Assembly: GCA_000091205.1 (NCBI GenBank)
Contig: AP006495.2
Length of the DNA stretch: 64,000 nucleotides
Source of the DNA: Cyanidioschyzon merolae
Lineage: Eukaryota
Strand: one strand, 5' to 3'
In this document: piece after piece, positions 1,550 through 59,862 of the stretch
How the letters are laid out: each line of letters begins with the position of its first letter
Numbering within the stretch: position 1 is the first letter of the stretch
Made by a program: the position numbers and the translations under genes
Notes under the pieces: model-generated
Database searches by the model: none
Told to the model about the DNA's origin: nothing
Seen by the model: the letters and a program-made list of their open reading frames with translations, nothing else

Positions 1550-1582
<33 letters not shown>

Positions 1583-10500: not shown

Positions 10501-13500
10501 ACTCGAGCGTCTCGTTTCTGGTGTTCAAGAAGTGCTCTTCTTTCGGGCGTGGCTAGCGCAACAAGCAGCTCCCAAGCAAAACGTGTGGCATGGCGGCAGC
10601 GTCTACGATATCCAGTGCCAGCCGTACTTTGCATCGATCGTTGTGGAGCGTCAACTGACCTCGCCACGAGGCCACGAGGCATCCTCATCCACCATACAGG
10701 TACAGTTGTTATCCGAGGAGCTGGAACTGCGCTTTGGTGTCGATGACCTGGTGCTGTGTCTGCGCACCCTGGATGGACTCTTGAACACTCTGTTTCAGCG
10801 ACTGCAGACGGCGCGAGTCCGCAGAGCCTGGTACCGACATCGTCTAGCGCTGCGGAGTGCGGCGTTTGTGTCTCGCGCCAGTGGACGTCTGGGGGCAGCT
10901 CTACTGGGGCTCGCGGACACCGACCTCCATCATCGACGTTTCAGTGGCAGTATCAGGAGTAGTTATAGTGCTGGTGGTAGTGGTGCGCCCAGCATCGACC
11001 AAGAACGCGACTCGGAGCACCTGGATCATGGTGCTCGTGATACCGATAATGACGAAGGCCATGCTGCTGGTAACGAGAGCACGGGTGCAGCGGCAACAGC
11101 GCGCCACTTACATCAGCGAGGTTCTTCGGGGCGGCGACCACTGGGCCTGGCAGCTGCGGCAGTCAACTCGGGTCCGTTGAAGGCCTGGTTAAGCGAGAGA
11201 CTTGGGCGTCGTCGCACTGTACCTTCAGCGAAACAGGCTCAGTCACTGGATGTGCACGTTCCGCGAAGGCATGCCGTGGATGCTGCAGCAGCAGCTGCTG
11301 CTGCTGCAACGACACGGGGGATCGATCTGGAAGCTGGATTGCAGGCAAAGGAGCAGCAAAGCTTCCTGGATCAGAGTCGTGAATCCGGCAAGAGGAGGAC
11401 GCTCGCTTCATTACTCAGGAGCAGCTTATCCATGGATTCAGACGCACAAAGCGCCCCAAGGCCTGCCGAGCGTATCGATAGCACCTCACCGCGTTCACCG
11501 ATGCATTTGGACGGCACGAGTACTACTCCCGATACTGGTGCTACAGCCGGTGCTACTGCTGCGTCAACCGGTACGCCCGAGCAGACGATCCATTGGCAAG
11601 GAAGTATCGGTCCGATTCGCTTCTCGCTCATGGACACGTTTGCACAAGTACCGTACGCACTTGTGAGCCTAGCGCTGTGCCCCGAGGACCTCGAGGTGAC
11701 CTGGGCACCCGACCAACAAGCGCTGGGTGTGACGGTGCACCTTCGCATGGCCATGCACACCTTCGCGTCTGATCGCTTGGTATGGGATCCACTGGTGGAC
11801 CCGTTCAATCTCTGGATTCGAAGCCGTTCCCAGATCAACCAGACACTGGACACGATGACGCTGGGGGTAGCCATCGAGGTGCCCGAGTCCATTGAATGCA
11901 CCGTCAGCGATCGTTTTATTCAGGCTATCGCTCAGACGGATCAACGAATCCGGCACGAGTTCGCAATGGAGCATCGTCAGCTCGGTCGACATCGTCAGTT
12001 GCGGCACCGACAGCGAGCTTGGGTCCGATGGACGCGTCCTCGGTCGGAGCCGCAGCTGCTGGAGTTGTACAACGCGACGGAGCTGGTGCTTTGCCTAGAG
12101 ACGCAACTGCAACTGGTACCGCTGCAGCTTGCCCCTGGGGCGCGAGTTGCGCTGCCCCTGGTAGCGCCTCTGCCCAGCACCTGTTGTTGGTATCCCGCTG
12201 ATGACGATCGACAGCGAGCAGATGCTGCGTTTCGCGCGAGACTCTGGGTCCAGGACGCAACCGCTGCAGCTGCATCCTGCTTGACCTCGCCCTGGACACC
12301 GGCCTGGTTGAACCTGAGTCATTACGGGCGTCAGCTGTTGCGTCTGCAGTGGCAGGCTGGGGGTATCGGGGCCGCTTTGGCTGCCACAGACTCGATACCA
12401 GCCAAGGCTGCTGCTGGGGCTGCTGCTGGGGCTGCGGCGCCATTCCTGGAGTTGCTCATGATTGGGGCCCTGCGTGGTGAGCAACTCACGGTATCGTTCC
12501 ACAGCCCCGTTCTGGTACAGAATACGACGGGAACAAGTCTGCGGTTACGTCTACGTGTTCCTGGTGGGTCTCCAGTGCCAAAGTCCGCGTCGAACAAGCC
12601 CCATGCGATCGAGATTCGCTCCTGGTACGCACATCAGTTCGCGTGTTATCATCAGAGTCGCAAAGCCGACCCCACACCAGTCCCGAAAACACGTCACCGT
12701 GCCACCGATGAACAGCCCGCAGGTGTTGACTGCTGGCAACGCGCTGCTTGGCCAGCGACTGCGGCAACACTGGACGCTTCGAGTACAGCGGCAGACTCGC
12801 AGCTAGCGTACGCGTCTCTGGACGTGAACCAGCGCTCTAGTGTCGGGACTAGCGCACCATCAGATGAAGCACCGGGTGATGTAGCCGGAGCATCGTACCA
12901 GAGGTCAGGTGTGGATCGGAACTGGGCACCAAGCCAAGCGCCATGTGCGGATGCTGCTACTACCGGTACTGCTATTGCTGGTACTGGTACTGCTGCATCG
13001 ACGCAGAGACCTGGTAGCGCATCTGCAACACCACGGACACGTTCCGTGGAAACCCAGCTGGTGCTGGAGACGGTGATACCGCCACAAGGCGTTCGTTCGC
13101 TACCGCTCGCGTTCTCGACGCTCGACGGAGAACTGTACATTCAGGCGTATCGCCGACCAGAGTCGCGAGTCCCGGCCAATGCCTGCGACTCGTCCGGGGT
13201 TTCGCGAACACCTGCTGAGGCCCTGGACTCGCAGTCTTCTTCGTCTGACGCTTTGAGGAGCAAAGAGCCGCCACCAAACGCTCCATTGGAAATGGGTGCG
13301 TTTCTGCGAGCGACGCAACTGGAGCCGTTGCTGATGGAAGCGCGGCACAGCGCCGTCTGCTTACCGCTCTACAGTGAAACAAAATACGCCGCTTTTGGTA
13401 CCGGAGGGAGAGCAAATGCTGGAGTTGCCGCTTCACAACGACGAGTGCTCTGGTATGCGCGAATGCAAGCGTTCCGTATGAGATCGGATGCCTGGTGGCT

Positions 13501-16500
13501 CGCCCTATCCATTCTACCAGTTGTCAAGGTACTGAATGCGCTTCCGTATCCTGCAACACTGGACCTGCTGCAGGACGGTCAACGCACTGGACGCCTATCG
13601 CTGGCCAGTGGCGCCGAGGACACCATCACTGGCGTCAACTGGATGCGCCCCTGGCTCATGGAGTGGTCGGTTCGTGAGCCCGACGACACCTACAAGTGCC
13701 GGGTGCCTTCTGTGTTCACCCTGGAGGCGCCTCGCAGCCTGCCTGATGCATCCCAGTCCTACTGGGATGGCTGGTTCCGCGGTCAACAGACGAATGCACT
13801 GCGGTGCTGGCGCTTGCAACTCGCTCCTCATGGCGACCTGGATCGGTCGAGTGCGCGTTGGCTGCTCACGTTGACGGCTAGTTACTGGTTGCTGAACTTT
13901 ACGAATATCGCCCTGGACGTGCTGCCTTTGAATCCGGTGCCACCAGCGACACCGTCTGCGGACCGCTCGAGCCGCTGGTGCTGGGTATCGTCGTCGACGA
14001 AGAAGCAGCGACCTGATGTGCTTGGCGAGGTCGCTGCAGAGCTGCAGGCACCGTGTACACGAGACGCTGCCACCCGGCAACCGACGCACGAGCTCGATAC
14101 CGAGTCGCCGGTGCGCTTGCACAGGGCGAATGCAACGGTACCGCCCGGCGTACCGGGTTATCCTGAAGTGTCCGTAACAGCAGCATCGTCGCAGGGCGTC
14201 TTTCCGGCACTCCAGGCCGCGCTGTCGTCGTCGCTCGAGTCGAGGTCTGAGCTCGCGTCCGGCGCTCCACAGCAGCAGCATGCTCGCACTGCGTTCGAGA
14301 GAGGAACCGAGGGCTTGTGGATGCTCTCGCTCACGAGTGCGGCTCCGGCTGCTACCATGGCGAACCGTGCCCGGTTTGGGGTACAGGCTTCACCGACATC
14401 CGATCGTCATCAGAGTCGTAGACAACGGCGATTCGCTGGCGGATCGGTGGACGTGCGGTATCAGACCCTGGGACGCAGCGAGTTTGTGCTCGACGGTTGG
14501 CCGCTGGTGATTCATCGTCAGCCTCACTGGGAACTGACCGGTGTCACGCTGGTCTCTTTGCATCCGTATTTGCTCATTCAGAACGCGTCGACGTTCGCAG
14601 TGGCGGTCAGGGCCTTGCATGGGTCATCTGCAGCAGTCCTGGAGCTGCCTGCTTCGGCTGGCTCTGAAGCGTCTGGTGCGTTCTCGGTACGTCCGCTGCG
14701 GCTTTGGCAGCATGGACGAGGACGAAGTGCCCGCTCCTGGCTCAGTCGACCCGTGCTGTCGCTAGCTGTTCGAGAGGATCGTTGTGAGGAAGCCTCGGCA
14801 ATCAACTGGCACTGGTATCGTGACCTGCCGCTGAAAGAGGATCGCGTATTCACGCTGAGCTTTATCATGGAGCATCTGTTGTTGGCGAGTCATCTGGGCG
14901 CCCAGCGTGTACAACTGGTCGAGCGACCTGGTACTGGTGGTAGCACTGGGCTCAAGTCGCATTCCATGAATCCGCACGGAACGGAAGCAGAGCAGCAGCA
15001 GCAGCAGCAGTCGTGTTCGCGGCTGGAAACGGGTAATCAGCATGGAACGAAAGCGAGTCAGCCGGTTGGCGCAAGTCGGTCGAAAGCACGGTTGCTTGAA
15101 TCGAACGTGGATCAGAGACGACACCAGCGCAATGACGACCCGCATAAGCAGCGGTATCCGACGCGGTACCAGGAACAGGATCAGGTTCAGTTGGGTACCT
15201 GTCGACAGGGGGAGCTTCCAGATACGAAGCGCCACCAGCATTGGCAACGTTACAGCAGCAACGAAAGCGCCCACTTACGCGAAGCTTTTGAATGCCTGCT
15301 GCACGTTCAGGTCAGCAGCAACCTCTTGGGTCAGAAAATCGTCATCCTGAGCGACGAGTTACCCACCAGTCCCCGGTTTGCGCTCTGGAATCGTACACCC
15401 TATGTGATCCTCTATCGGTGGATGCCACCGCAGACCCTGGCGCTGGGCGGTAGCCTGTTCCATCGACGGCGCTGTATGTTTCAAGTCGCCAGGCCGTACG
15501 CGCGCCTAACACTGAGTCCAGCCTGGGTCACGGAACACTACTGCTTGCAAGCGATGGCGTTTGCGTCGCTGCGGGAGGCGCTCGAATGGCGTCTCTGGCG
15601 GCATGGACAAGTCTACGACCTCATGGAGCCGCAACGCTATGCAGCATTACCTGTTCAGGGACAAGCTGGCACCGCCATTGACCTGGTTTATCCACAGGTT
15701 GACCTCGTTGGGACCGGCACTGCCCAGCTGGTATTCAGTAGCACCCGGCATACTGCCGCAACAGCAACGACGACTGCGACTACAACGGATACAGCGCAGC
15801 ACACGTCGACGTCAGCGCAAGCGCGGGCGCTCATCGAAACCTCCTTCATGAGCGCTGGTGCCCAGGCGTCTGCATCCAACGAGGTCCCGCTGTTGGGCGC
15901 TTTTCTCCACCGGCAGCGCGGAGCACCATCGCTGGAAATCCTGCTCCAGGTAGAACTGAAGCGCGCGGCAGTCTCGTTGGTGCTGTGCGATTCGCATCAG
16001 CGTTTCTTCGAGATGCTCTATGCGGCGGCCTCGGGAATGGAGCTCTTCCTCCATACCTGCGGACCGGAGTCGTCTTTATCTCTCCAGGTGACTAGCGTTC
16101 AATGCGATAACACGTTACCTTTCTACGTATCTCCGGTATTGATGCTGACCCGCGAGCAGCCGTGGCTCTCGTGTGCGGCGCGGTGGCGGCAACATGCCGG
16201 TGGTCGGCACTACTACAGCATTCAGCTGCGTATCGCCGAGTTGCTGGTGATGTTGGATGATGGACTTTTATGGCAGTTGTTGGAGGCTGCGCGTGAGCTC
16301 TGGTCGAGCTTTTCGCAACGTCGGGCGGGACTGGAGCGCACTGCCCCCGTGCTTCGGAGTGTGCTGGAGGCCGTGGATGCGCCCAGCTTGTGGCTTGCGT
16401 CCAGTCGAGCGGTTGCAGAGCAGCGTCGAGCGCCCTCTTTCTTCCAGCTTGTACGGGTCGAGCGTATGCGCCTGCGGCTATCGTTCAAGACGGATCGGGA

Positions 16501-18067
16501 ACGCGCACTGGAAACTGCGGCCTTGACACGCCAAACGCTCTTCAACGCGGGTCTGGTGCTCACGGAACTCGACAATGCATTGGTTCTGGTGGGTGCATTC
16601 CAGCTACGTCAGGTGTATGCACCGCTTGTACAGGTCATTGAGCGCATGGTACAGCATGTGCTGTGGCAGTCGTTCCTGAGCTCGTATAACTTCATAGGTG
16701 GATTGAGCTGGCTCGGTGATCCAGCCGGCTGGTTGTATGAGCTTCGTGAAGGCACATTTGATTTCTTTAACGAGCCTATCAGTGGTCTGTTCGAGTCCAA
16801 TGAGGCGCTGTGGCGGGGGTTTCGGCGCGGGGCTTTTGCCCAGGGTCAAGCGCTCACCTTTGCGTTAACGCAACCTGCGGCACAGCTAGCCGGTAGTTTG
16901 GCTCGTGCACTCGGCACGATCAGCTTGAACAGGACCTTTGAGATCGCCCGAGCGCGTCAAGATCGCACGCTTGGTGAACCGGAGGATATCTTTCTCGGGA
17001 TCGCGTATGGTATGTTGGGTGCTGGTACTGCGCTCGGTGCCGCATTGACGGGCATATTCGTGGAGCCGGTGCGCGGGTACCGTCAGTCCGGCGTTGGCGG
17101 CTTGTTTCAGGGTCTTGTGGCGGGTCTCTGGGGATGGCTACCCCTGACTTTGGCCTCTTTTCTGGTGCTCGTTCAGAAGCTTGCCATGGGTATCCGCAAC
17201 CAGAACCGGGTGGATCTGCGAACACGAGAACGTCTCCGTGATCCACGTGTGCTCTACCGGGCCAGCGATGCACCGCTTCCACCGTATGTGGCGTATTTGG
17301 CGCGGGGTCAGCGGCTCTTGCACCAGGTTCAACGCGGAGCGCTAGCTACAGAGCCCTACGTCATACATATTGAGTTTGAAATGTCGGCGCTGGAGGACAG
17401 AGAGGAAGAGGAAGCACGGGACTCGTCGATGGAGGCGACGCAGCGCCCTTCGGTTTGGGGTGCTGTCTCGAGAAGGCGCCTAATCGGCTGGATATCCAAG
17501 GGCAGGTTGGCTTCGAGTCTCGGGAAGAATCCTGGTGCTGCTGGTGCTGGTGCTGGTGCTGGTGCTGGTGCTGGTGCTGGTGCTCAGGAAACGCTCATCA
17601 CGGTTGCCGTACCAGCGGCAGTCATTCTCTCCCGTTCATATCTTGTTGCTGTCGACGGGAATGGCGCGTTTCTGTGGCGTTGTCGGCTGGCTCGTATTGA
17701 GGCCATTCGTGAGCGCTCCGATCCGACGGGCATTCGCTGGTTATGGATCCAGGCCCGTCCGAGACGCGGACGAAGTAGACGTGCCTATCTGTTTAGCAAG
17801 CCAGAAGCAGCTGCTTCTGCTTCTGCTGCTGCTGGTGGTGGTGGTGCTGTCGTCATGACTTGGGCAGCATTACCGACACGTCCACCGAGCCCGTCGCTCG
17901 ACGCGTTTATGCAGCTTGTTTCGTTGATGAGACAACGACAGGCCTCGATGGAGGCGGCCTCTCTGCCGCCTAGCCGCGAGCCGTCGACAACGCGAGCCAC
18001 CAGTACGAACAAGGCGGCAGCGGAAACGCTCACGGCACTGGAAACGGATATCTTGGACGCAGTGTAA
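674..18067 (+). CDS. VPS13: Giant VPS13-family bridge-like lipid transfer protein (5797 aa, single uninterrupted ORF)
   Basis: The N-terminus (GIFQALLQLFLGWLCPGLTLRSLRLHWRRGWLELRNLNVP...VRFVRLHVGRLRIKVSW) matches the chorein-N pattern L.NL.L...AL..LP..V..G.IG.L.L.IPW. The C-terminal region (SYNFIGGLSWLGDPAGWLYELREGTFDFFNEPISGL...GYRQSGVGGLFQGLVAG) matches the conserved VPS13 C-terminal GS.d.lGNPvG...G..DFf.eP motif. The protein is full of low-complexity inserts. The true ATG may be at 674 or 689. Confidence 0.8.
1551..1580. repeat. (CAG)10 microsatellite in the VPS13 coding sequence, encoding poly-Ala
   Basis: cagcagcag... read directly from the sequence. Confidence 0.9.
2561..2600. repeat. 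(GCTGGT)n hexanucleotide microsatellite, coding (AG)n
   Basis: gctggtgctggtgctggtgctggtgctgccgctgcc. The same motif recurs at 17533 and 18818. Confidence 0.9.
8448..8951 (+). repeat. Six perfect tandem copies of an 84-bp unit, in frame within VPS13 (28-aa unit SSQTASENAGTSTGIRRAVTVPGEIPTR x6)
   Basis: The unit gatcgtcgcaaacagcatcggagaatgcaggcacgtcgactgggatacggagagcagtcaccgtccctggagaaatacctacga repeats with period 84. The copies are identical apart from one base in the first unit. Confidence 0.9.
17533..17584. repeat. (GCTGGT)8 microsatellite in the VPS13 3' region, coding (AG)n
   Basis: ggtgctgctggtgctggtgctggtgctggtgctggtgctggtgct. Confidence 0.9.
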
Positions 18068-43866: not shown

Positions 43867-45402
43867 ATGAAAACCAAAAGTCGAGGTAAGACGAACCATT
43901 GGGACCGTGACGGTGCTCCGGCGGTGGCACGCGAGCACCAGTACCGCAGCAGCCGCAAAGGCACTGCAAAAGGGAGTGTGGCGGCGCCCGTGCACAAGCG
44001 GAGCTTGTATGCTCGAGGCCTGCTGCTCGTTGTACTCTATCTGTTTCAGGGCGTACCCATGGGCCTCACCTTTGGCTCGCTGCCGTTTCTGCTCCAGACG
44101 CGCTCTTCCTACGCCAAGCTCGGTGTATTTTCCTCTGCGTCGTATCCGTACTCACTGAAGCTTCTCTGGTCACCGATCGTCGACTCGGTATACGCGTCGC
44201 GTCTCGGTCGTCGCAAATCCTGGATTGTACCTGCGCAACTCCTTATAGGGGTCATCATGGCCTCCATGGCCGCAGCAGTGGAACGCTGGGTTCAACATGC
44301 CCGAGTGATGCAGTTGACGCTTTTCTGCTGGGGGCTCGTTTTCCTTGCGGCAACACAGGATATTGCGGTAGACGGTTGGGCATTAACGCTCTTAGGTGAA
44401 GCAGGATCCGGGTACGCATCGATTTGTCAATCGCTAGGGCTTAGTCTAGGGTACTTTTCGAGCTATACAGTTTTCCTCGCGCTGAACAGCGATGAATTTT
44501 GCGTCCGATGGCTGCAGCAAACATCCGCCGTGATTCGCTTGTATACCTTTCTGCGAATCATGGGTGCATCATTCATTGCGTTCACGCTAATGTTGGCAGT
44601 TTTTGTCAAAGAAGAAATGGCGGAGGATTTGACGCTTGTTCCGCAACCCGACACCGGAGGCCTGTGGTCCGCTCTGCGAGATGCGTATGCCGCGCTTTGG
44701 AGCATACTGCGCAAGCGCTCCATTCAGCGCTTGGTTGTATTCCTCTTGTTCAGTAAGTTTCCCTTTGCTGCTCATGATCACATATCGTCACTGCAGCTGG
44801 TGCGTCGCGGGTTCCCGCGTCAACAGCTGGCATTCATGGCGGTGCTCCAGTGGCCGTTCGACGTCATCGGAGCAATCGCTGTTGGTCGGTATGCCCGGAA
44901 CAGCCGTAACCTCAAGGACAGTCTCTGGCGATGGGGCTTTTTTCTGCGGCTGATGCTCGCAATGTTCACTCCGCTGCTCATCCACTATTTCTTCCCGCGT
45001 GGTGAAAGCGCACGATCCCGTTGGATGTTTGTCGCGATTTTCATCGTCAGTGTTCTTTACCAGTTAGCCAGCGATGGTCTAATGTTTGTGTCCACGTCTT
45101 CGTACTGTGCTCGGATTAGCGATAAGCGCTTTGGAGGCACGTACCTCACGCTTTTGAATACTGCATCGAATTTGGGGGGAACGTGGGCGACCCCGTTGGT
45201 TTTCGGTGCAGCGCACCGCTTCGGATACCTTCGTGTCGCTTTGGCTCTCCCTTTGTGTGGCCTGCTCGTATACTTGCTGCTCCTGGGACCAACTCTGGAC
45301 TATTTGGAGAAGGTTCCGGCATCAGCGTGGCAGCTTGATCGGGGTCCAGCCCAAGCCGTCGCTTCTGTGCCTCACCGCAAAACACTCCGATGTCGCGAGT
45401 GA
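43867..45402 (+). CDS. Acetyl-CoA transporter (AT-1 / SLC33A1 family, MFS)
   Basis: LLLVVLYLFQGVPMGLTFGSLPFLLQ...YPYSLKLLWSPIVDSVYASRLGRRKSWIVPAQLLIG matches the SLC33A1 N-terminal signature LQGIPLGL...FSLKLLWAPLVD..Y...GRRKSW.VP.Q. The protein has multiple TM helices and the ATG start is confirmed. Confidence 0.8.
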   Translation: MKTKSRGKTNHWDRDGAPAVAREHQYRSSRKGTAKGSVAAPVHKRSLYARGLLLVVLYLFQGVPMGLTFGSLPFLLQTRSSYAKLGVFSSASYPYSLKLLWSPIVDSVYASRLGRRKSWIVPAQLLIGVIMASMAAAVERWVQHARVMQLTLFCWGLVFLAATQDIAVDGWALTLLGEAGSGYASICQSLGLSLGYFSSYTVFLALNSDEFCVRWLQQTSAVIRLYTFLRIMGASFIAFTLMLAVFVKEEMAEDLTLVPQPDTGGLWSALRDAYAALWSILRKRSIQRLVVFLLFSKFPFAAHDHISSLQLVRRGFPRQQLAFMAVLQWPFDVIGAIAVGRYARNSRNLKDSLWRWGFFLRLMLAMFTPLLIHYFFPRGESARSRWMFVAIFIVSVLYQLASDGLMFVSTSSYCARISDKRFGGTYLTLLNTASNLGGTWATPLVFGAAHRFGYLRVALALPLCGLLVYLLLLGPTLDYLEKVPASAWQLDRGPAQAVASVPHRKTLRCRE

Positions 45403-47678: not shown

Positions 47679-48041
47679 CTGCGTATGTGGCGGTCAAACG
47701 ACGACGACGACGATGACGATCTGCGTCGCCATCGAGGTGGCGTTTCTACCTAGCGCCTGTCCGCCGTCGCTTAAACACTAGGTAGCCATTGCGTTTTCTG
47801 TACTCGTTGGAGGGGGACTTTGCTTGAACGGTGTTGGTAACGAACTGGGTCCAGGGCAGCAAGGTATTTCCCAAAAAGACGCTGGCTGAAAGACACTCGA
47901 ACACGTCAGTCAAGCGAGGACTTTGGACATAGTCCTTGTGGACGCAGAAGCAAACGAGCCTGGGTCTTTTTGCGTCGCGAGGCGTTACCGAGCGCATCGA
48001 CTACAGTCTGACGCACCCCTAGGATCGGAATAGTGACTTTA

Positions 48042-51000
48042 ATGGGGGATTTGGGTGAACATGCACCGTCGAATGGCTCCGCAAAGGATAGCGTTCGGCG
48101 CTATGTTGAGGAACACGGCGGTAGTAGACCAATTCAGCGCTTATTGGTCGCAAACAACGGAATCGCCGCCGTAAAGTGCATCCGATCAATGCGAAGATGG
48201 GCATACGAAGCGTTTGGTAGTGAACGAGCGCTGGAGTTTGTAGCAATGGCCACTCCCGAGGATGTTCAAGCCAACGCCGACTACATTCGCCTCGCTGACC
48301 TCTTCGTTCCCGTACCTGGGGGAAGCAACAACCACAACTACGCCAACGTGGAGCTCATCGTCGACATCGCGGAAAGGAACGAGTGCGATGCAGTATGGGC
48401 GGGTTGGGGTCACGCCAGCGAGAACCCGCTGCTGCCCGCTCGCCTTGCGGAGACTGGTATCGCATTCCTGGGACCGGATGCCATTGCCATGAGGGCGCTC
48501 GGCGACAAGATTTCGTCAACGTTGTTAGCTCAGTCTGCGGATGTTCCAGTCGTCAGCTGGAACGGTGATGACTTGAAGGTAACTTTTCACCGCGAGCGCG
48601 GCGGTATTGATGAAGAACGCTATCGCCGTGCCTGCGTTGCGAATGTCGACGAGGCTCGCGCTGCTGCCGATCGTATTGGCTACCCAGTGATGATTAAAGC
48701 CAGCGAAGGAGGCGGTGGCAAAGGCATCCGTCTTTGCCGTCGACCAGAGGATGTTCGAGATGCCTTTCGTCAGGTCGCCGGAGAGATTCCTGGCTCTCCG
48801 ATCTTCATCATGAAAATGGTGGATCAAGCGCGACACCTGGAAGTGCAGATTGTTGCCGATGAATACGGGCACGCGATAGCGCTATATGGGCGTGACTGCT
48901 CCGTGCAGAGACGGCATCAAAAGATCATCGAGGAAGGGCCAGTTACGGCAACGCCACCGCAGGTTTGGAAAGAGCTCGAACATGGAGCGGTGCGTCTTGC
49001 CAAAATGGTCGGTTACGTAGGTGCCGGCACTGTTGAGTATCTCTACGACGGTCGACGTTTCTATTTCCTGGAACTGAATCCGCGCTTGCAGGTGGAGCAC
49101 CCAGTAACCGAGTGGATCACTGGCGTGAACCTGCCTGCAGTCCAGCTGCAGATTGCCATGGGGATTCCGCTCCAGCGTATTGCAGCTATCCAAGCACTTT
49201 ACGGCAATAGACCGGACCTGGATCTCGAGCGACACCAGCCGAACCCGCCGCATGGCCACGTAATCGCCTGCCGCGTTACCGCAGAAAATCCCGAGGAAGG
49301 ATTCCAGCCGACAAGCGGCTCCATTCAGGAGCTTTCGTTTCGAAATACGCCCAATGTGTGGGGCTATTTCAGCGTCGGCGCCTGGGGTGGTGTCCACGAG
49401 TACGCTGACTCGCAATTCGGGCACCTTTTTGCCTGGGGTGCGGATCGCGAGATGGCCCGGAGGAATATGGTGCTGGCACTGAAAGAGCTCAGCATCCGCG
49501 GAGATATCCGCACAACGGTGGAGTATCTTATTACGTTGCTGGAGCTCGAATCGTATCGCGAAAATCGCATCCATACCCGTTGGCTGGACAACCTCATTGC
49601 CTCCAAAGTGAAACCAGAGCGACCGCCGTTCCATATCGCTGTTGTGCTTGGTGCAGTCCATCAGGCGTACAGAGCCTGGTCTGAGCGCCGGCGATCTTTT
49701 GTTGAGTCGCTGAGTCGCGGTCAAGTGCCGCAGCGTATTGACGCTACCTTCATAGAATTTCAGTTCGAGCTGATCTACGATGAGCTCAAGTACGCGCTCA
49801 TCGTCAGGCAAGCGGGTCCGAATGCCTTCCACGTCTCCCTAGCACAGCATCCCGAGGAACGGGTGCGTGTTGATTTCCGACCTCTGCTGGACGGTGGTCT
49901 CTTGATCATGTGCGATGGTCGCTCCTTCAATACTCACTCCAAGGAGGATTCCACTGGCATGCGTCTGAGCATCGACGGGCGAACCTGTGTGTTCCCAGGC
50001 GAAATGGACCCTACGCGCATTGCAGCACAGGCCTCGGGGCGTCTCGTCCGATACCTGGTTGCCAACGAGGAACACGTCGATCAGGGACAAGTCATTGCGG
50101 AGATTGAAGTCATGAAAATGTATCTGAGCGTGCAGGCTCCCGAACCGGGCACCATTCACTTGCTGAAACCAGCGGGAGCGGCCCTGGAGCCAGGCGAAGT
50201 TTTTGCGCAGCTCGATCTCGACGATCCGAGCAAAGTTCGACGGGTGACGCCATTTACTGGGCGCTTTCCGACAATGCTGCCTCCACAGCGACTGGGAAAG
50301 AAACCGCACCAGCGCTTTGAGAGCGCGAAACAGCAGATCGAAGCGCTCCTGGACGGCTACGATGTTGATATGGAGCCGCTCGGCATGCTTCTGCAGCTGG
50401 CGAGCACCGAACCGGCAGTACCGGCCGGGAAACTGCAGGAGGCGCTCTCTTTCCTAGCCGGTCGTATTCCGTCGACGTTGCATGCCGCCCTTCTAGGACA
50501 AGTTTTCGAACTGCGTTCCGTTGCTCGTGATGATCACGAGCGCCTCCAACAGCATTTCCGCGAAATGAAGCGCATGATCAGCGATTTCTGCGAGCAACTT
50601 GCCATCGCAGCGGACCGCGAGGCGCTGGAGGCTACCCTGCGCCCCCTGACCAGTATCCTGGAGGCGTATGTTCGCGGGGGCCTTCGCGGCTACCACGAGC
50701 ATCTCGTTGTATGCCTCATGCAACGCTATGTGAATACGGAGAAGTATTTTGCGCAAGGTCGGCGGCTCGATGAGGTTCTATTCGATCTGCGCGAACAACA
50801 CCGCGAGCACTTGGAAGTTGTTGCGGATATCATGCTCGCACATGCCCAGTTAGCGCGAAAGAACCAACTGATGCTCGCTTTGCTCGATCACATAGCCGCG
50901 GATGCATCGCTTCTGCGCAGTGTCATTGTCCGGCAGTGCCTTCACGAGGTGGCTGCGTTCATCCACCCCGACTATAGCCAACTGGCGCTGCGAGCAAGAC

Positions 51001-54000
51001 TCTTGCTGGCGAGTTCTCGTCGCCGAGCGCTCCCCGAACGTCGAGAGCGCCTCTGCAAGCAGATCGAACAGGCTGTACATGCGCCCACTGAAGAACAATG
51101 CTATCGTCTGTTGCACGCGGTGGTCGAGTCCCAGGAAAGCATCCTGGATGCGCTGGTGAGCCTAACCATGAACCCGGGGGTGCCGGTGGAGATTCGCAAA
51201 GCCGCTGTCCAGTGCCAGATCCTGCGGGCCTACAAAGCGTACCACGTGTACGATCTGGTTGTCGAACTTGACGAGGAACTGGGTTTCCTGCGGGCGTTGT
51301 GGCGTTTCCAGTATCGTTCAAACCTGAACGCTTTTGGTAGTCATTCCAGTATGCGGTCGTTTCCGGCGGCATTGGTGGCGGCGTCGGCTCCGCTAGCCCG
51401 CCGGCAGCTGCGTAGCTACGACTCTGCGGACAATTTGCAGAACTGGGGCTTTCGAGTCGGTATGTTGGTCGTCTTTGAGACGCTGCGGGCGATGGTGCAG
51501 GGTTTCGATCGTGTGCTCCAGGTTTTTCGAGCGGAAACCGGCGGCGAAACGCTGGCTTCGCCTCGTACCAAGTCGAGCGCCGCAGTCGATTCCAGTGCAG
51601 ACTCCAGTGCTGAAGGTATTGGTGTCAATGTACTGACCATCGCCATTCCCTGGACGGCCGTGGAGGTCGCTGATTTTGCGAAATACCTGGGCGTTGCAGA
51701 CGCGGACGACCGTCTGCAGGCAAGTAATGCGAACGACTCGGAGCAGGTTGTCGCCCTGCTCACGCGTTTCTGTCGCTCTTCCGCGGAGCGCAAAGCCTCG
51801 ATGCGCGCTGCCGGTATCAAACTTGTGACCTTTTTGGTGGCACCCGGTGAACTGTGCCAGCGCACGCTGGGCTCCAGTCTGCCTCGTGAAAGCACTTATC
51901 CGGGTTTCTATACGTTGCGGGCATCGCTCGAGTACGCCGAGGATCCCATTTATCGCCACATTGATCCACCAGCGGCTTTCCAGCTGGAGCTGAATCGATT
52001 GGCGAACTTTCGTATCACCCGCTTTGAACATCCGAACCGCTCCATTCACGTCTTCTACGCGGAAGATCGAACCGACAAGGGCGACGCTCGCTTCTTCGTG
52101 CGCGCTTTTGTACGGCAAGCGGAAGTCTACGCCAGTCCCAGCGATACAGCAGCGGTTTCGATCCCGGAAGCGGAGAGGACTTTTGTGGCCTGTCTGGATG
52201 CCTTGGAAACCGCCCGTTGTGATAGGCGCTTCCGACGAACGGACTTTAATCATCTCTTCTTGCACCTGATTCCCCGGGTCTCCATCGATGTGGATGACGT
52301 CGAGGCGATCTGTACGCGCCTCTTTTATCGGTTCTCCTCACGTTGCTGGCGTTTGCGCGTGTTCATGGTAGAGATCAAAGTCCATGTGGAAAAAATGGGC
52401 CCGAAACCGCTTCGATTTATTCTCTATAATCCAACCGGACACTCGTTACGCGTTGAAGGCTACGTGGAACAGGGAGATCGTCTCCTGTCGTTGGATTCCA
52501 GCGATCCGGGTCATTTACATGGTACACCCGTCGATGAGCCGTACCAGGTACTGAACCGTATCCAGCGCCGGCGAGTTGTTGCCCAGACGCTCGAAACAAC
52601 TTACGTCTACGATTACCAGGAGCTTTTCACCAAAGCACTCCATGAGCAGTGGCGGCGTTATTCGCAGGAACGACTTTTGGGAGGATTTCGCCGCCACAAG
52701 ATACCGCTGAAACTGCTGACCTGCACGGAGCTCGTTCTCCAGGATGAAGATCATGACGAGAGCGAGCTGATAGAGACCAACCGCCCCGCCGGGGAGAATG
52801 AAATCGGTATGGTCGCCTGGCGCTACACCTTCTTCACGCCCGAGTATCCCCAGGGTCGCGATGCGATCGTCATTGCCAACGATATCACGTACCTGAGTGG
52901 ATCGTTTGGACCTCGAGAGGATCGCCTCTTTGCCAAGGCGTCTCAGCAGGCGAGAAAGCTCGGTATACCGCGCATCTACATCGCTGCGAATAGCGGAGCC
53001 CGAATCGGCCTCGCGGAAGAACTGCGCAACGTCTTCCAAGTTCAGTGGAAGGATGCACATGACCCGAGCCGAGGCTTCGACTACCTCTACCTGGGACTGG
53101 CGGATAAGCTCAAGTACGAGGATGAACTCGGCATCGTGCGAACGCGAGACGTCGGCGGCGGCAAGTACGCTCTAGTTGATATCTATGGCGCTGAGGATGG
53201 CATTGGTGTCGAGAACCTCATGGGTTCAGCGTGCATCGCTGCCGAGACCTCAGCCGCCTACAATGACTGCTTCACCATCACGTACGTCGCAGCGCGCTGT
53301 GTGGGGATCGGTGCGTACCTCGTGCGCCTGGGGCAGCGCGTTATCCAGCGCGAGCACAATGCACCGATCATCCTCACTGGCTACTCAGCGCTGAATAAGC
53401 TTCTGGGTCGCGAAGTCTACACCAGCCACGAACAGCTGGGCGGTACGAAGATCATGTATCCGAACGGGGTTACCCATCTGCGCGTATCCAATGACTACGA
53501 GGGTGTTCGGGCAATTCTGGACTGGCTCGCTTTTGTGCCTCGTATGCAAGGGGAACGACCTCCGATGATCGACTCCATCGATGCTGTGGTACGCGAAGTC
53601 GACTACGATCCACGAGTGGCTAACGAGGATATTCGATACGCCATTGAAGGCAAGTGGGTCGGACCCTTCGCTCCCGACGGGGCAAGTGTGGTCTCGTCGT
53701 CGGGCTCGTCGGTGTCGTCCAATGGTCCGGTTGCGACAGGTGCGAGCGCTGGACTGCCGCCCGTCAACATGGAGAGTGTCGGCGGTGAAGTTCGGTATCG
53801 TTCGCGGTCGCGGACGGCTTCGTATGCGGGTGCGAATGCAGCAACAGCAGCAGCACCAGGAGCAAGTAGCTTGGCGACCTCTGGAGCGGCACTTGCGAAT
53901 GCTACGGGACGAGCAGCGGCTCGGGTGAGCCTCGTATCGACCAAGCCTGCAACCGGTGTCGAGGAGGTTCCCGCGGCGTTGCCTTCGGGTTCGAGTTCAC

Positions 54001-55447
54001 TGGCGCTCCGCTCGACCGCTGTCGCTGCGCCTGTACCTCAGGAGAGAGCAAAGACGGATGCGGATGCGGATGCGGATGCGGATGCGGATGCCTTGGAGGC
54101 CACTGGAACTGCCCGAGGCGCAGATACCAGCGGTGCTGGGGCGCACGCAAGCCCTGACACCCGGCAGCCGCCCACACTGGATGCCCTGAAGACTGCGAGG
54201 TTTGCACCAGCGCCCGCTGCATTGCCGACGACAGGTTTACGCTCGCCACCACAGTCCCCGGGTTCTGTTTCTGCGTATAGCCCGTTGGAGAGTGGCTCTC
54301 CATTGGAGCCGTCCCTTGACGAGGATCACATCGCTTTCACGGACACCGATCGGATGCGGATCGGGTCGCCTTTGGTACACGCGACCGACGCCTGGGATAC
54401 GAGCAACAGCGTTCACTCGAGTAGCGCGACGACGATGGCTGCAGGTGCCGTCCGGGGCTCGCGACTGTTCACTGCGTCATCGAGTACGTCGGCGGCTGCG
54501 GGAGCAAGCGCCAGCAATAGCAGCAACAACGGTAGCAGCAATGCGAATACGAATACCATGAACAATGCTGGGAGTAGCGTGGCATCGGCAGGCGCACCGC
54601 TCAACACCACCGGTAGCATCAATACCAATACCAATGCCAATGCCAATACCAACAATATCTTGGGTAGCGGTGGTGTTGGTGCGACAGCTTCGCTGACCGC
54701 TTGGAGCGGTAACCTTCCGCCGCTACCGTACGTTCCAAATACGCTCATGGTGGTGGACAACCAAGGGTACGTGTTCCTGGCAGGCCTCTTCGACCGTCAC
54801 TCGTTTCGAGAGACGCTCGCTGGCTGGGCGAAGTCCGTTGTGGTTGGTAGAGCACGCCTTGGTGGTATCCCCGTGGGCGTTATTGCGACACAGACGGTGA
54901 CCACAGAGAAGGTTATTCCCCCGGATCCAGCGGCGCCAGACTCGCGTGAGCTTCGTGAACAGCAGGCCGGTCAAGTCTGGTATCCAGATTCATCCTTCAA
55001 GACTGCCCAAAGTATTCGTGATTTTGATCGCGAGGGTTTGCCTCTGTTTGTTCTGGCCAGCTGGCGCGGTTTCTCTGGCGGAGCACACGACATGTTCCAG
55101 GAAATACTCAAGTTTGGTTCAGAGATCGTTGACGCGCTTCGCGAGTACTCGAAACCCGTCTTTGTGTACATACCACCGGGAGGCGAGCTTCGAGGCGGTG
55201 CCTGGGTCGTCCTCGATACCGCCATCAATCCCCGCTTTATCGAAATGTACGCCGATGAAAGTGCACGTGGTGGTGTGCTCGAACCTGCCGGTACCGTGGA
55301 TATCAAGTTCCGCACCAGAGATTTGCTGAAGACCATGCAGCGCCTGCTACCATCGTCTAGACGTGATGAGAGCGATTCGAGTGCGTCCGACGTTGTCGGC
55401 ATGCTGTCTTTGGACGCATCATCATCATCAGCAGCAGCAACAGCAGC

Positions 55448-55481
<34 letters not shown>

Positions 55482-56201
55482 GCAGGTACCGCTGGGACGT
55501 CCTCTTCGACTGCTGGGCGTAGCGAGTCGCGGGTCACAAAGTCAACGGCGGACGGCTTGCCAGCCTTCGAGGCAGACGGTCGGAGTTCGCTCGAGCAAAC
55601 ACTCTTGCCCATCTTTCAGCAGATAGCCATGACGTTTGCGGATCTGCACGATACAGCGGGTCGGATGCAACATAAGCGCGCGATTCGCCGAGTGGTACCC
55701 TGGCGAACAAGTCGCACGTTTTTCTACTGGCGCCTTCGACGTCGGCTCGCCGAGGAGGAACTGCGGAGTCGCGTTTCACAAGCGGATCCGCAACTCAGCG
55801 ACGCGGAGATCGATGCGCTGCTGCGGAAATGGGCAAGAGCACATGACCCCGCTCTGGACGGTGATATTTACGAACTTGATGATCCTCGTGTCGTGCAATG
55901 GCTCGAGGACGAATTGGATAGCCAGTTGGAGCGGCGTTTGCACAAACTCCGCGAAGCACGCGCCACCTGGCAAGCTGTGGAACTGGGGAATACAGCACCC
56001 GAGGCGTTGCTTGCGGCAATTGAGCGTATTCTCGTACAAATGGATGAAGTTGGTCGCAACGAATGGTTACGAACGCTTAGTGCGCGACTCGAGAACACCT
56101 CATCCGGTTTGGGTGATCTCGAGGCGCCCAGCTCGGGTGAGCAGGCCGCACCACGACGTGTCTTGTCGGGTCGTGGTCTGCTGCGACGCTTCCTCGGGTA
56201 G
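48042..56201 (+). CDS. ACC1: Cytosolic-type multidomain acetyl-CoA carboxylase (biotin carboxylase - BCCP - central - carboxyltransferase), about 2720 aa
   Basis: BC motifs NNGIAAVKCIRSMRRWAYE and EGGGGKGIR. Biotinyl-lysine motif EVMKMY. The CT domain (LAGLFDRHSFRETLAGWAKSVVVGRARLGGIPVGVIATQT...WRGFSGGAHDMF...IPPGGELRGGAWVV) aligns to yeast Acc1. The track start at 48033 is GTG; the ATG (MGDLGEH) is at 48042. Confidence 0.9.
54057..54092. repeat. (GATGCG)6 in-frame hexanucleotide repeat coding (DA)n within the ACC insertion
   Basis: gatgcggatgcggatgcg... read directly. Confidence 0.9.
55421..55486. repeat. (CAT)n/(CAG)n/(CAA)n trinucleotide tract coding SSSSAAATAATTTTTTTTTTT inside the ACC carboxyltransferase domain
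   Basis: catcatcatcagcagcagcaacagcagcaacaacaacaa... read directly. Confidence 0.9.
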
Positions 56202-56777
56202 TGCGCTACGACTCTGGAACGATTTGCGCGGGTTGCATCGGTGGTGTTGTCATCGTCGTCGACGCCGACGTCGATGGCAACGGCAGCCTCGTCCAGAGTC
56301 AGGAGTTTGCCGCGCGATGCTGTTTACCTATGGGGGCGTCGGGGAGCTTCCACGACGTTCGGTCGTGGAAAACATACATGGACGACAACGGAGCATTTTC
56401 GACGCTTGCGAACGCGCAAATGCACCAGCACAAGTCATAAACACGAAAAGAATCCGGGGTTTTCATTGCAACGATTCCGGCGAGGTACCCCAGCGGGCTC
56501 TGATCTGCAGAGGTGCTTGTCTAGACGTACGGCTACTCGAGTTGTCGCAGCGTCATGGACGTACTCGTCACGCAAATATGGTTTACGCTTGGGTTTCGGC
56601 TTCATTGCAGACGGCGTGCAGTGTCAACGCGCAAAGATACGCACACAAAGAAGCGCTTTGGTCTAGACGCGGGCATGGATGCTAGCACACCTCTCTAGAC
56701 GAACGAATTCGGTGCCGTGGACGAACCCCAGTACCTAGGTAGCTACACAAACGCGTACGCATGTCGATGCGTCGATG

Positions 56778-58421
56778 CTAGGGTTTATCAGGGCAAAGCG
56801 CATTGCAGCAAGCTGCTTGATCGGAAGCTCGCGAGCCCTGGTATCGATCGTAGTATCGAATACCACGTCCGTCAATGCGAACGAGGTAGTAGGTTCCGGG
56901 GAAGAGTTCCTCCAACGGTTCGGAGGGCTCGTAATCACAGGCGCCGTAGTTCTGTTCGCGAAGACGAAGCGTCTCATGAAAACAAGCAGGCGACGTCGGT
57001 ATCCGTGCTCCTAGTCGTTCTATGAGACCAACTCGTCGAAGAAGCGCCTCCGGAGAGGCCACGACCCGCATGGCGTACATTGACGCTGCCATGCCGCTGC
57101 CAAAACCGAAAAGAACCACCCGTTTGCCGAGTGTACGATCCCTCTCGGCATCGAGTAAGCACAGTAAATTACCAAAAAGCGAGGCGGTGTACGCGTTGCC
57201 GGTTTGTCGAGCCAGCGTCGTCGACGGAGCACACTTGGCGCGATACAGTGGCTCCGAGCATTCAAGCACGAGCTGCATCAGGGTTCGATCCCAGTAGGTT
57301 GACGGTGGCGGTACGCACACACCAGTCGGGTTCAGGTGCGCAGGGAGGCGTTTCAGCTTGGCAAGTTGCGCACGTAACGCACCCGATACGGCACGATGCT
57401 GTGAAGCCAGTTCAGGATAGCGCAAGTAGTCGTTGAGCACGAGTCGCGCAAACGATTTGCGCACCAGTTTGTTGAATGGTGCATGGAAAACCACATAATC
57501 GAGTTGCGTTGCGTCGGCATCCGCGACCGGTGTCACCGAAGGCTCAGCAAAAGCGGTGCTTGTCAGCAGGGTGCATCGAAGCGACTGTTGTTCGGTGACC
57601 TGCTCGGCACCGGGTCGACCGCTGGTTTCCGCCAGCCATACTCGTGTGCGTCGAGTCTGCTGCTCGACTCGTCCAGTAAACCTGGTGTAACAGATATCGA
57701 GTGCTCTAAAATAGCAAGCAATGCTTTCCGTGCCATTCACAATAGGATACTCTGTATCCTGTCGACGAGCAGGCTTGAAAAAGTCCCATGTGTTTTCAAA
57801 ATGGCTACTTTTAAGGCCCGGTTCCAGCACCAGGATGGGCTCTAGCTGCGGGTAGCGTTGGGGCTGCGCTCGACCAATGAGGAGCGCGACTGCGCCCGCT
57901 CCACCGGTTGCTCTCGCTGGTCCGCGCGGATACACGGCAATATCGCCGCACACCACGAGCCCGAAGCGACCATCAAAGAGGGTACAGCTCTCGCACCAAG
58001 CGATGGTGTTGAAGAGGGCATTGGTACCAGCGTAGCAGGCGTTGGTAGAATCGATGCCTTCGACCTCAAAGTTGCCGCTCTGTTCAAAGAGGGACATGAG
58101 CGCCGTCTTGATCGACTTGGCTCGATCGATGATGGTCTCGGTGCCGACCTCGAGCCTGCCGATGTCGTTGTATTCAATTCGGTATTTCTCCATGAGCGTC
58201 TGCACGACTGTCATGCACATCGAGCGCACATCCTCGCGATCGCCACAGAACGACATGGCTTGTTGTCCCAAACCGATGGTGTATTTCCCAGGGGTGACGC
58301 CGTCGAAGCTCTCCAGCGCCCGTTGATCGACATATTTGCGTGGGAAGTATACTTCAATGGCCAGAATACCTACCGGATCAAAGGTGGAGACTGAAGGAGC
58401 CAAAAGCTGCGCTTGTCGCAT
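56778..58421 (-). CDS. HMGCS: Hydroxymethylglutaryl-CoA synthase (mevalonate pathway)
   Basis: ILAIEVYFPRKYVDQRALESFDGVTPGKYTIGLGQQAMSFCGDREDVRSMCMTVVQTLMEKYRIEYNDIGRLEVGTETIIDRAKSIKTALMSLFEQSGNFEVEGIDSTNACYAGTNALFN is near-identical in pattern to the animal and fungal HMGCS N-terminal half, including the catalytic NAC. I chose the MRQAQLL start (18 aa before the conserved block); the track ORF extends to 58595. Confidence 0.85.
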   Translation of the reverse strand: MRQAQLLAPSVSTFDPVGILAIEVYFPRKYVDQRALESFDGVTPGKYTIGLGQQAMSFCGDREDVRSMCMTVVQTLMEKYRIEYNDIGRLEVGTETIIDRAKSIKTALMSLFEQSGNFEVEGIDSTNACYAGTNALFNTIAWCESCTLFDGRFGLVVCGDIAVYPRGPARATGGAGAVALLIGRAQPQRYPQLEPILVLEPGLKSSHFENTWDFFKPARRQDTEYPIVNGTESIACYFRALDICYTRFTGRVEQQTRRTRVWLAETSGRPGAEQVTEQQSLRCTLLTSTAFAEPSVTPVADADATQLDYVVFHAPFNKLVRKSFARLVLNDYLRYPELASQHRAVSGALRAQLAKLKRLPAHLNPTGVCVPPPSTYWDRTLMQLVLECSEPLYRAKCAPSTTLARQTGNAYTASLFGNLLCLLDAERDRTLGKRVVLFGFGSGMAASMYAMRVVASPEALLRRVGLIERLGARIPTSPACFHETLRLREQNYGACDYEPSEPLEELFPGTYYLVRIDGRGIRYYDRYQGSRASDQAACCNALCPDKP

Positions 58422-59862
58422 CGTATCCGGGTGAAGTGGCTCCGACTCCTGTGCAGCACTCGTTGTTGGCGGCATTCCGCAAAACCAAGGCCTGTTTTGT
58501 TCCCTGCGTGACAAGCATGAAGACGTCCGCTGCGTTTGCTGGTCAGACGAGCACCAGCTGTCTTTGTCTGATAACCAACTTGTCTGGAGCTCCATAGGCT
58601 GTAGTGCTCCACCGAGCTCTTTTTAACCGTGCCGGTCGCTTGTATTCTAGAAGCCGCGACACTTCAGGTCGGTCGATGTACAGCAACCCAACGCAAGCGG
58701 TGGCGCTTTTCGTGCAGAAGCGCGGACCTCGCCGTACGTATCGCTCAGGCTCCGAAACGCACCAGCGAGTTTCTCGTTCGCAGTGAGAGTTCAGCCACTC
58801 AGTTCGATGGACCAGGCTTGTCTAATCGACGCAATGTTCCACCATACATAGAAACATGGTGCAACCAAAGTCTTTCCCGAACGGCATGAGCCAACCGCTT
58901 TGCTCATACGTATCCAGCTGGGAGAAGCAGCAGCAGCGGCAGCGGCGATGGCGGCGGCAGCGGCGATCTCCACGCTTGGAGCCACCAGGGCTCGTGTCCG
59001 TTTTTTCTTTCTACGAGATAGCGCCCATGAAACACGGAGTGCAGGCAGTGCTCCTGCTTCCTGCTAGACGAACGGATACGATCGCGTGTCAACGAGATGC
59101 TCGAGTCGAGTCTGTCCGATTCTGGTGCTGGGAACATGACGGGTCTTTTCGTATACGCGTACGGCCTCATATCCGTTTATGTGAAACGGGATCTCGGATC
59201 CCAACCCAGTCGCTCCATCAACGTTCTTGTGAACAGTACCGAAGCTTGACATGCTGCGGCCTGTTTGGTAGCATTTCTCAGACAACTTTTGCAGCGGCAT
59301 CAATTGATCAAAAGACCTTCGAGTTGATAGAGTCAAACAGATTCCGTTTCGGGTGCACGGTGTTCAGCGTAAGGGCCAGGAGACGGGTGACTCATGCACC
59401 CGCTTATCGTAGAATGAGTACCATGGGGAAAACGGTAGATTTTTCGCCTGCTACCGGTGACGGAATCCAGACTTTCGGCGGTCTGGCTCCCGACTAGTGG
59501 ATGCATTCCTTCTATTGAATACTTCCGGGAAAACAGAACCCAATCGGCGTGATGGTATAGGTATTCCAGAATTTACTGCTCTGCGTCTACCAGCATGACA
59601 GTGCTAAGTTTAGATGCATCATTCGTGTACCATTTAGACTGTTCAAGGGATCGACTTCATCGCAGACAACATTTCGAAAAAAGACGGTATTGGCGTGTCA
59701 CAGCCGCGAACGGCCGGTCGTGCGCCTTGAACAACCCGAATGCGGGACGTAGCCAGTATGCACCGCAAGCTCCAAAGTACGGACCAACACCAAAAACCTA
59801 ATCGATTCAACTGCAGAGATGCCTGCTTGTGAATTCCAGCCAGTCGCGTACCGCCACGTGCT

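Follow-up and report, generated by a model that had tools for sequence, protein, structure and literature searches.

We analysed a 64,000-nucleotide (nt) stretch of the genome of the red alga Cyanidioschyzon merolae (GenBank assembly GCA_000091205.1, contig AP006495.2; hereafter the window), in which an open reading frame (ORF) at 48033..56201 on the + strand, the strand of all coordinates given below for this gene and its parts, runs through 2722 codons without interruption as one exon, both in the list of ORFs and in the translation. Its predicted product is a eukaryotic multidomain acetyl-CoA carboxylase (ACC) of the homomeric, cytosolic type. The probable start is the ATG at 48042; the protein P0134 begins at MGDLGEH. 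Pfam domains cover the N-terminal part (Biotin_carb_N 34-153, CPSase_L_D2 201-382, Biotin_carb_C 413-519, and ACCA_BT 535-654) and the C-terminal part (Biotin_lipoyl 669-726, ACC_central 728-1482, and Carboxyl_trans, which extends to 2572 as two stretches), giving the order BC, BT, BCCP, central, and carboxyltransferase (CT) domains in a single polypeptide, with the biotin attachment motif EVMKM at amino acid (aa) 692 in BCCP. Between the two Carboxyl_trans stretches lies a low-complexity segment of 356 aa (53682..54749, aa 1884-2239) that is predicted to be intrinsically disordered. This insert, which we consider most probably a translated, lineage-specific loop grown from short DNA repeats, is the subject of the analysis below.

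The nearest relatives of the window ACC are 33 JGI metagenome proteins with 99% identity, followed by the ACCs of Cyanidiococcus yangmingshanensis, a red alga of the Cyanidiales (74%), of the assembly GCA_041825655.1 / JGI 3300039285 (74%), and of an ENA assembly (68%); the ACCs of other red algae are 40-50% identical to it. The multifunctional ACC1 of C. merolae (CMM188C) is cytosolic, and the plastid contains a separate multisubunit ACCase (PMC4928187). The description of the enzyme as essential in an earlier reading made from the sequence alone (hereafter the sequence-only reading) is not established for this organism.

When the window protein was aligned to the CT domain of human ACC1 (4asi), the alignment broke after 'AIEGK' and restarted at 'VFLAGLFD', with about 7 human residues facing about 370 residues here. 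The limits obtained are 53682..54749; the sequence-only reading had placed an in-frame insertion of about 350 aa at 53680-54725. In a survey of 121 ACCs, in which we counted the residues between the conserved arginine of the DPR motif and the glycine of the GxFD motif, this linker measured 17-27 residues in 111 of the 121 proteins, 47-50 in Galdieria, and 57 in Balamuthia; it reached 181, 316, and 318 residues in three close relatives and 382 in the window ACC. The frame of the insert holds no stop codon, compared with a mean of 10.9 in composition-preserving shuffles, none of which (0 of 5000) was free of stops, and the five remaining frames across the insert contain 3-12 stops. The sequence-only reading had expected about nine stops at a GC content of 65%; the absence of stops was confirmed, but the GC content of the insert is 62% and that of the whole window 56%. 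Alanine, serine, threonine, glycine, proline, and asparagine make up 69% of the residues of the insert, which includes segments of low entropy. Low-complexity segments of 30-80 residues are found in other genes of the window, and the ACC insert stands out from them mainly by its size.

The two halves of the CT domain flank the insert. The N half (52839..53651) matches positions 1-266 of the Carboxyl_trans profile, is modelled with confidence by AlphaFold2, and matches solved ACC CT domains in Foldseek, and the C half (54777..55748) matches positions 264-493. The insert thus splits the profile near its midpoint (about 265 of 493) and displaces none of it, and single-chain carboxyltransferases of the PccB type align on either side. 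With both stretches covered and none of the profile lost, the catalytic core of the CT domain is complete. The N and C subdomains of CT have the beta and alpha subunits as their counterparts in bacterial CT, and the insertion point is what we take, from structural work on yeast CT, to be the linker between these subdomains. On the basis of the profile midpoint and this structural literature, we read the insert as lying at the seam between the two. CT has an N/C architecture and dimerises head to tail, with the active site located at the interface of the dimer (PMC11735997). AlphaFold2, run with an alignment of 36 sequences, gave a confident CT core, for which Foldseek returned target-normalised template modelling (TM) scores of 0.65-0.74 to solved CT domains (about 0.7 for 4asi and 1od2). 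For aa 1883-2236 the same model gave a pLDDT below 50 (about 28) and no secondary structure, which shows the insert, within the terms of the prediction, to be intrinsically disordered. The model therefore bears out the disordered loop that had been proposed, from the sequence, to project from CT; a placement within a fold element close to the active site is not borne out, given the profile position and the absence of any lost position.

Immediately before the disordered part, an edge element, KWVGPFAPDG (53652..53681), is conserved in three species and is modelled by AlphaFold2 as a strand (fragment residues 329-334). This element is loosely similar to the canonical 'G-x-W-[VL]-S-G-F-F-D' element, which in this ACC is located after the insert, and the resemblance hints that the insertion may have begun as a local duplication.

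For comparison we used the orthologous loci of three other species (L001, L003, and L004), among which L004, an ENA sequence (ERZ1300892), represents a fourth species that is much more distant and GC-rich. Comparing ACC orthologues had been suggested in the sequence-only reading. The ACCs of C. yangmingshanensis (KAK4531784.1), of GCA_041825655.1 / JGI 3300039285, and of ENA ERZ1300892 are orthologous to the window ACC, share its neighbouring genes, and have an insert at the identical site but of different lengths. At about 290, 290, and 160 aa, their inserts fall short of that of the window and are almost unalignable to it outside three short islands, which the two closer relatives share with the window ACC together with an Asn-rich tract. 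Between these species, synonymous sites have reached saturation, with a proportion of synonymous differences (pS) of 0.68-0.79, and the inserts of L001, L003, and L004 are nevertheless open throughout. Because unconstrained sequence would have gathered about 10 stops in each of them, the open frames argue for translation.

The three islands are collinear in the window protein (WIN), L001, and L003. Island 1, EVRYRSRSRTAS (53787..53822), contains a basic RxRSRxxS motif, with five of five invariant residues encoded by differing codons in the three species. Island 2, RSPPQSPGSVSAYSPLESGSPLEP (54240..54311), contains four conserved Ser-Pro sites in a PEST-like composition (SPPxSP…YSP.E.GSP); 14 of its 24 columns are invariant in the three species, and 10 of these differ in codons. 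Island 3, DTDRMRIGSPLVHATD (54342..54389), follows the pattern R[IV]GSPL[LV]HA..D and has 9 invariant columns, 8 of them with differing codons. In all, 28 island residues are invariant in the three species, and 23 of the 28 are differently encoded, including serines that have switched between TCN and AGY codons. The distant L004 retains SPPHSP of island 2 and SPLL of island 3. In composition-corrected BLASTP searches of insert against insert, similarity was significant over islands 2 and 3 only (E-values of 1e-6 and 2e-10), and the inserts of the two closer relatives aligned with each other from end to end (E-value of 3e-43). The amino acids of the islands are kept while their codons change, a pattern of selection on the protein, and purifying selection at this level holds for all three islands.

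Outside the islands the insert diverges quickly. Its identity between species is 30-38%, that of the CT flanks is 87-95%, and its length among the relatives varies from 159 to 356 aa. Because dS was saturated or undefined and interspecies dN/dS was consequently unusable, we relied on codon-level inspection of the islands and on single-nucleotide polymorphisms (SNPs) in five JGI metagenome population contigs (L005-L009) compared with the window. The ratio of nonsynonymous to synonymous SNPs was 7:3 in the insert and 8:17 in the remaining 2290 codons, and none of the seven nonsynonymous changes fell on an invariant island residue. In a pair of Cyanidiococcus strains, 22 of 58 substitutions, together with a 2-aa indel, were located in the insert, which makes up 11% of the length. 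Most of the insert thus appears to evolve almost neutrally.

The insert is also where the repeats of the gene are concentrated: Tandem Repeats Finder (TRF) identified seven tandem arrays in the ACC gene, six of which lie within the two inserts of the CT domain, the second being described below. The (GATGCG)6 microsatellite that had been noticed in the sequence and that encodes a (DA)6 run was recovered at 54055..54091 with a period of 6, 6.2 copies, and a 100% match. It has six copies in the window and three in all five population contigs, an in-frame indel of 18 nt. An Asn/Ser/Thr-rich tract at 54510..54680 consists of degenerate hexamer and trinucleotide repeats (families D2 and D3) and includes a CAATAC hexamer array (54620-54652, 5.5 copies by TRF) that is rich in Asn and Thr. 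The N/T-rich stretches of the sequence-only reading were found, but their composition calls for no special explanation, since the tracts are products of microsatellites. No outside source was found for the insert. An exhaustive phmmer search against 1.84 billion representative proteins matched nothing except a piece of this very gene, 127 aa long; it thus revealed no donor protein, and the insert is an orphan sequence; searches of the insert alone against Pfam and NCBIfam gave only noise (Herpes_UL17 with an E-value of 0.07 and ArfB with 0.63). A word-index search with the insert alone also gave no match, but it missed even P0001, which is 99% identical, and was probably swamped by low-complexity words. 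From their location and polymorphism, the repeats show that the insert has, as judged from sequence, derived from short DNA repeats and is still being changed by them.

The explanation that we favour, with a probability of roughly 0.8, is that the insert is a translated, lineage-specific disordered loop that expands the linker at the midpoint of CT in the cytosolic ACC of thermoacidophilic red algae belonging to the Cyanidioschyzon/Cyanidiococcus group, grown from repeats and mostly near-neutral, with three constrained islands. Under this explanation, slippage of short DNA repeats would have lengthened the linker and would continue to change its length, most of the loop would drift nearly neutrally, and the three islands would be held by constraint at the protein level. 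The loop would be tolerated because both of its ends leave at a linker whose length differs across eukaryotes and no position of the catalytic core is displaced. Since the C half of CT follows downstream, keeping the reading frame open would be the sole hard requirement for most of the loop. The islands have traits typical of linear motifs in disordered regions, chiefly those of sites phosphorylated by proline-directed and basophilic kinases. They are best regarded as putative short linear motifs, most likely sites of multisite phosphorylation, docking, or degradation (degrons), with island 1 a candidate basophilic-kinase site. As linear motifs, the islands would add a regulatory handle on the cytosolic supply of malonyl-CoA in this clade.

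Several observations weigh against this explanation or parts of it. Translation is argued from sequence, and the papers and supplements that could be searched yielded neither a phosphoproteomic nor a proteomic record for ACC1 (CMM188C). The insert of L004 has no similarity detectable by BLAST, and its homology is argued from its position and two short motifs. The islands fit no specific kinase consensus cleanly, and AlphaFold2 confidence does not rise at them. Finally, hhalign detected no mutual similarity between the N and C halves of CT (probability of 0.1%), which is why the subdomain boundary is taken from the profile midpoint and the structural literature.

The main alternative accepts that the loop is translated and disordered and holds that it is purely neutral filler, functionless throughout, with islands that are merely remnants drifting more slowly than their surroundings. 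It draws support from a ratio of pN to pS (the proportions of nonsynonymous and synonymous differences) near 1 among the ten population SNPs of the insert (7 nonsynonymous, 3 synonymous), from the low identity to relatives and the wide range of lengths, from the lack of AlphaFold structure at the islands, and from the lack of any record of modification in the searchable literature. Slow drift, however, does not readily explain how 28 island residues stayed invariant at a pS of 0.68-0.79, 23 of them through changed codons and with TCN/AGY switches among the serines, nor why the islands keep their order and remain significant once composition is corrected for, with two persisting in the distant, GC-rich L004. 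We think this alternative unlikely.

A second alternative assigns a function to the Asn/Ser/Thr-rich part, as a prion-like assembly domain through which ACC would cluster reversibly or form filaments, with an outcome like that of animal ACC polymerisation. The N-rich tract does recur at an equal relative place in the inserts of WIN, L001, and L003, where 20-residue segments hold 8-12 Asn, and it does so despite a genomic GC content of 54-56%. The tract nevertheless arises from hexamer and trinucleotide repeats that are polymorphic, shows no conservation of sequence, and is absent from L004, whose insert has 5 Asn in total; slippage-prone DNA shared by the three species is a simpler account of the similar composition. 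GFP-tagged ACC1 was described as cytosolic, with foci unmentioned (PMC4928187). We regard a prion-like function as improbable.

The third alternative is that the segment is a spliceosomal intron, in frame and of unusual length, or an intron that is retained. The length of the segment and its divergence from other ACCs are compatible with this, and by chance there are 21 in-frame GT...AG pairs that would remove at least 900 nt. Cyanidiales genomes contain 39-54 introns, in which GUAAGU, ACUAACC, and AG are nearly invariant and 85% of which have in-frame stops (bioRxiv 10.64898/2026.05.17.725761). Between 53600 and 54800 we found no 5′ splice site of the form GTAAG, GTRAGT, or GTNAGT and no ACTAACC branch site; ACTAAC does not occur in the insert, and a lone CTAAC at 53620 lies upstream of it. 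The absence of these signals, the lack of any stop in 356 codons with a frame also open in three further species, and the maintenance of amino-acid motifs through synonymous change all speak against an intron, which we consider very improbable. The choice between a translated segment and an unusual intron, left open in the sequence-only reading, thus falls in favour of translation, and comparison of the four species demonstrates, as far as it can be read from DNA, that the 356-aa segment is translated, i.e. exon. Peptides predicted from the translation of the insert by tryptic cleavage include TASYAGANAATAAAPGASSLATSGAALANATGR, SPPQSPGSVSAYSPLESGSPLEPSLDEDHIAFTDTDR, and IGSPLVHATDAWDTSNSVHSSSATTMAAGAVR.

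Least credible of all are readings of the segment as an artefact of assembly, as an intein, or as an insertion that came from a transposon: repeat-rich DNA is in principle prone to mis-assembly and the size of the segment is within the intein range, but the tract recurs at the same site in three other species and in five metagenome assemblies that are independent of one another, has neither a Hint/intein domain nor any other Pfam hit above noise at E<=1, ends in ...PNTLM/VVDNQG and not in His-Asn, lacks the terminal inverted or flanking direct repeats of mobile elements, and has no homologue elsewhere. An assembly artefact in particular, a possibility that had been raised when the insert was first noticed, is excluded because the five independent JGI metagenome contigs all carry the tract and differ by SNPs and repeat copy number alone. 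No Rfam family was found in 53000-56000. Two of the contigs, L006 (8775 nt, JGI 3300052695) and L007 (8672 nt, JGI 3300053659), span just the ACC gene with flanks of about 260-340 nt. These two contigs are transcript-like, and if the samples are metatranscriptomes, they would be direct evidence for the insert in mRNA.

The CT domains of yeast Acc1 and human ACC1 and ACC2 (1od2, 5csk, 4asi, 3ff6) share the domain order and fold of the window ACC (HMMER E-values of 1e-170 to 1e-180) and differ from it in the connection, which has 17-27 residues in these proteins and 382 here, 356 of them in the disordered insert. Inserts at the same point, Ser-rich and acidic, occur in Galdieria species (about 24 additional aa) and in Balamuthia mandrillaris (about 35), and two of the Galdieria inserts contain 'SGSP'; these are ten times shorter, and homology to the window insert is not demonstrable. 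Lineage-specific low-complexity inserts occur in conserved proteins of protists, for example as Asn-rich inserts in housekeeping enzymes of Plasmodium. Growth driven by repeats, more indels and substitutions, and weaker negative selection are features that the present insert shares with such inserts and disordered regions (PMC4494057). Unlike them, it is found in the compact, moderately GC-rich, and intron-poor genome of a thermoacidophile and has islands under clear purifying selection. The feature is a familiar phenomenon, a slippage-driven disordered insertion at a tolerant linker, that is unusually large but not categorically new.

A model for how the islands would act, if they are phosphorylated, is offered by yeast ACC, whose central domain has a disordered phospho-regulatory loop with Ser1157, a target of Snf1/AMPK. 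That loop lies in the central domain and not in CT, and the placement of the window insert in CT likewise differs from AMPK/Snf1-type loops in general, which lie either N-terminally of BC or within the central domain. Island 1 has RxRxxS and RxxS but in this species lacks the flanking hydrophobic residues of the AMPK/Snf1-type consensus (hydrophobic-basic-x-x-S-x-x-x-hydrophobic), and islands 2 and 3 are Ser-Pro sites and not AMPK-like. A central-domain loop of the window ACC itself, ARRQLRSYDSADNLQNWGFRVGML (~51390-51470, aa ~1120-1145), aligns with the yeast loop NRAVSVSDLSYVANSQSSPLREGIL, which is presumably the loop bearing Ser1157. Within it, yeast 'NRAVSVSDL' aligns with 'RRQLRSYDSADNL', separate from the CT insert. 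The alignment was obtained with a 600-aa fragment against the PDB; a 217-aa fragment of the central domain gave no match. The motif L-R-S-Y-D-S-A-D-N-L of this loop matches a hydrophobic/basic/Ser/hydrophobic kinase consensus and is invariant in four Cyanidiales sequences. Since the canonical central loop is apparently retained, any regulation through the CT loop would be an addition and not a replacement. That the insert and its three islands would together form a clade-specific regulatory module on the catalytic domain, in which multisite phosphorylation of islands 2 and 3 by proline-directed kinases and the basic site of island 1 would control activity, stability through a PEST-like phosphodegron, or partner binding, is a tentative proposal, possible but in our view rather doubtful.

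A second disordered insert follows in the C half of CT at 55395..55559 (aa 2455-2509; pLDDT below 50 in AlphaFold2), where a smaller poly-Thr/poly-Ser insert had been recognised from the sequence at 55380-55500. The stretch that includes it has 85 residues here and 34-40 in most ACCs. TRF arrays are located at 55429 and at 55438-55481, the latter a trinucleotide array of 14.7 copies. Its length is polymorphic, with a poly-Thr run of 7 to 11 residues and indels of 6 and 9 nt between population contigs.

Two further ORFs overlap the ACC gene in another frame or on the other strand, at 55636-56685 (+, 349 aa) and 54971-55612 (-, 213 aa), and most likely just happen to be open in coding DNA that is rich in GC. 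In three contigs, the JGI annotation includes a 79-aa ORF that begins at the ACC stop codon. The ACC gene is flanked by genes for an Acatn acetyl-CoA transporter (43867-45402, +) and an HMG-CoA synthase (56778-58595, -), so that the three adjacent genes of the window all encode proteins that handle acetyl-CoA. All four of the Cyanidiales-like genomes that were examined have them in this order, although synonymous divergence is saturated. In the HMG-CoA synthase (605 aa), the Pfam N domain extends up to residue 244 and the best stretch of the C domain starts from residue 363 at profile position 68, which suggests a putative further lineage-specific insertion between conserved parts. At the other end of the window, a giant ORF at 674-18067 (+) runs unbroken for 5797 codons, about 15% of it of low complexity; its single Pfam match, to VPS13_C near the C-terminus, scores 23.6 bits against a cutoff of 21, and the ORF probably encodes a bridge lipid-transfer protein that is VPS13-like but very divergent.

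For annotation, these results mean that the tract should be retained as coding and treated neither as an intron nor as low-complexity noise to be trimmed. C. merolae-type algae are a model for biofuel research, C. merolae itself is amenable to genetics, and the loop (aa 1884-2239) is probably removable for expression or structural work. Across the clade, the linker between the CT subdomains has expanded by about 24 residues in Galdieria and by about 155, 290, and 356 residues in the other lineages compared, in extremely streamlined genomes. The population data show repeat slippage in progress, in a setting in which short motifs that look functional arise within near-neutral sequence. On this enzyme, the source of malonyl-CoA in the cytosol, roughly a dozen Ser and Arg residues that are conserved can now be named as candidate sites of regulation. 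If the regulatory proposal is true, phosphorylation of the islands would link the malonyl-CoA supply on which fatty-acid elongation draws with signalling by the cell cycle, light/dark, or TOR.

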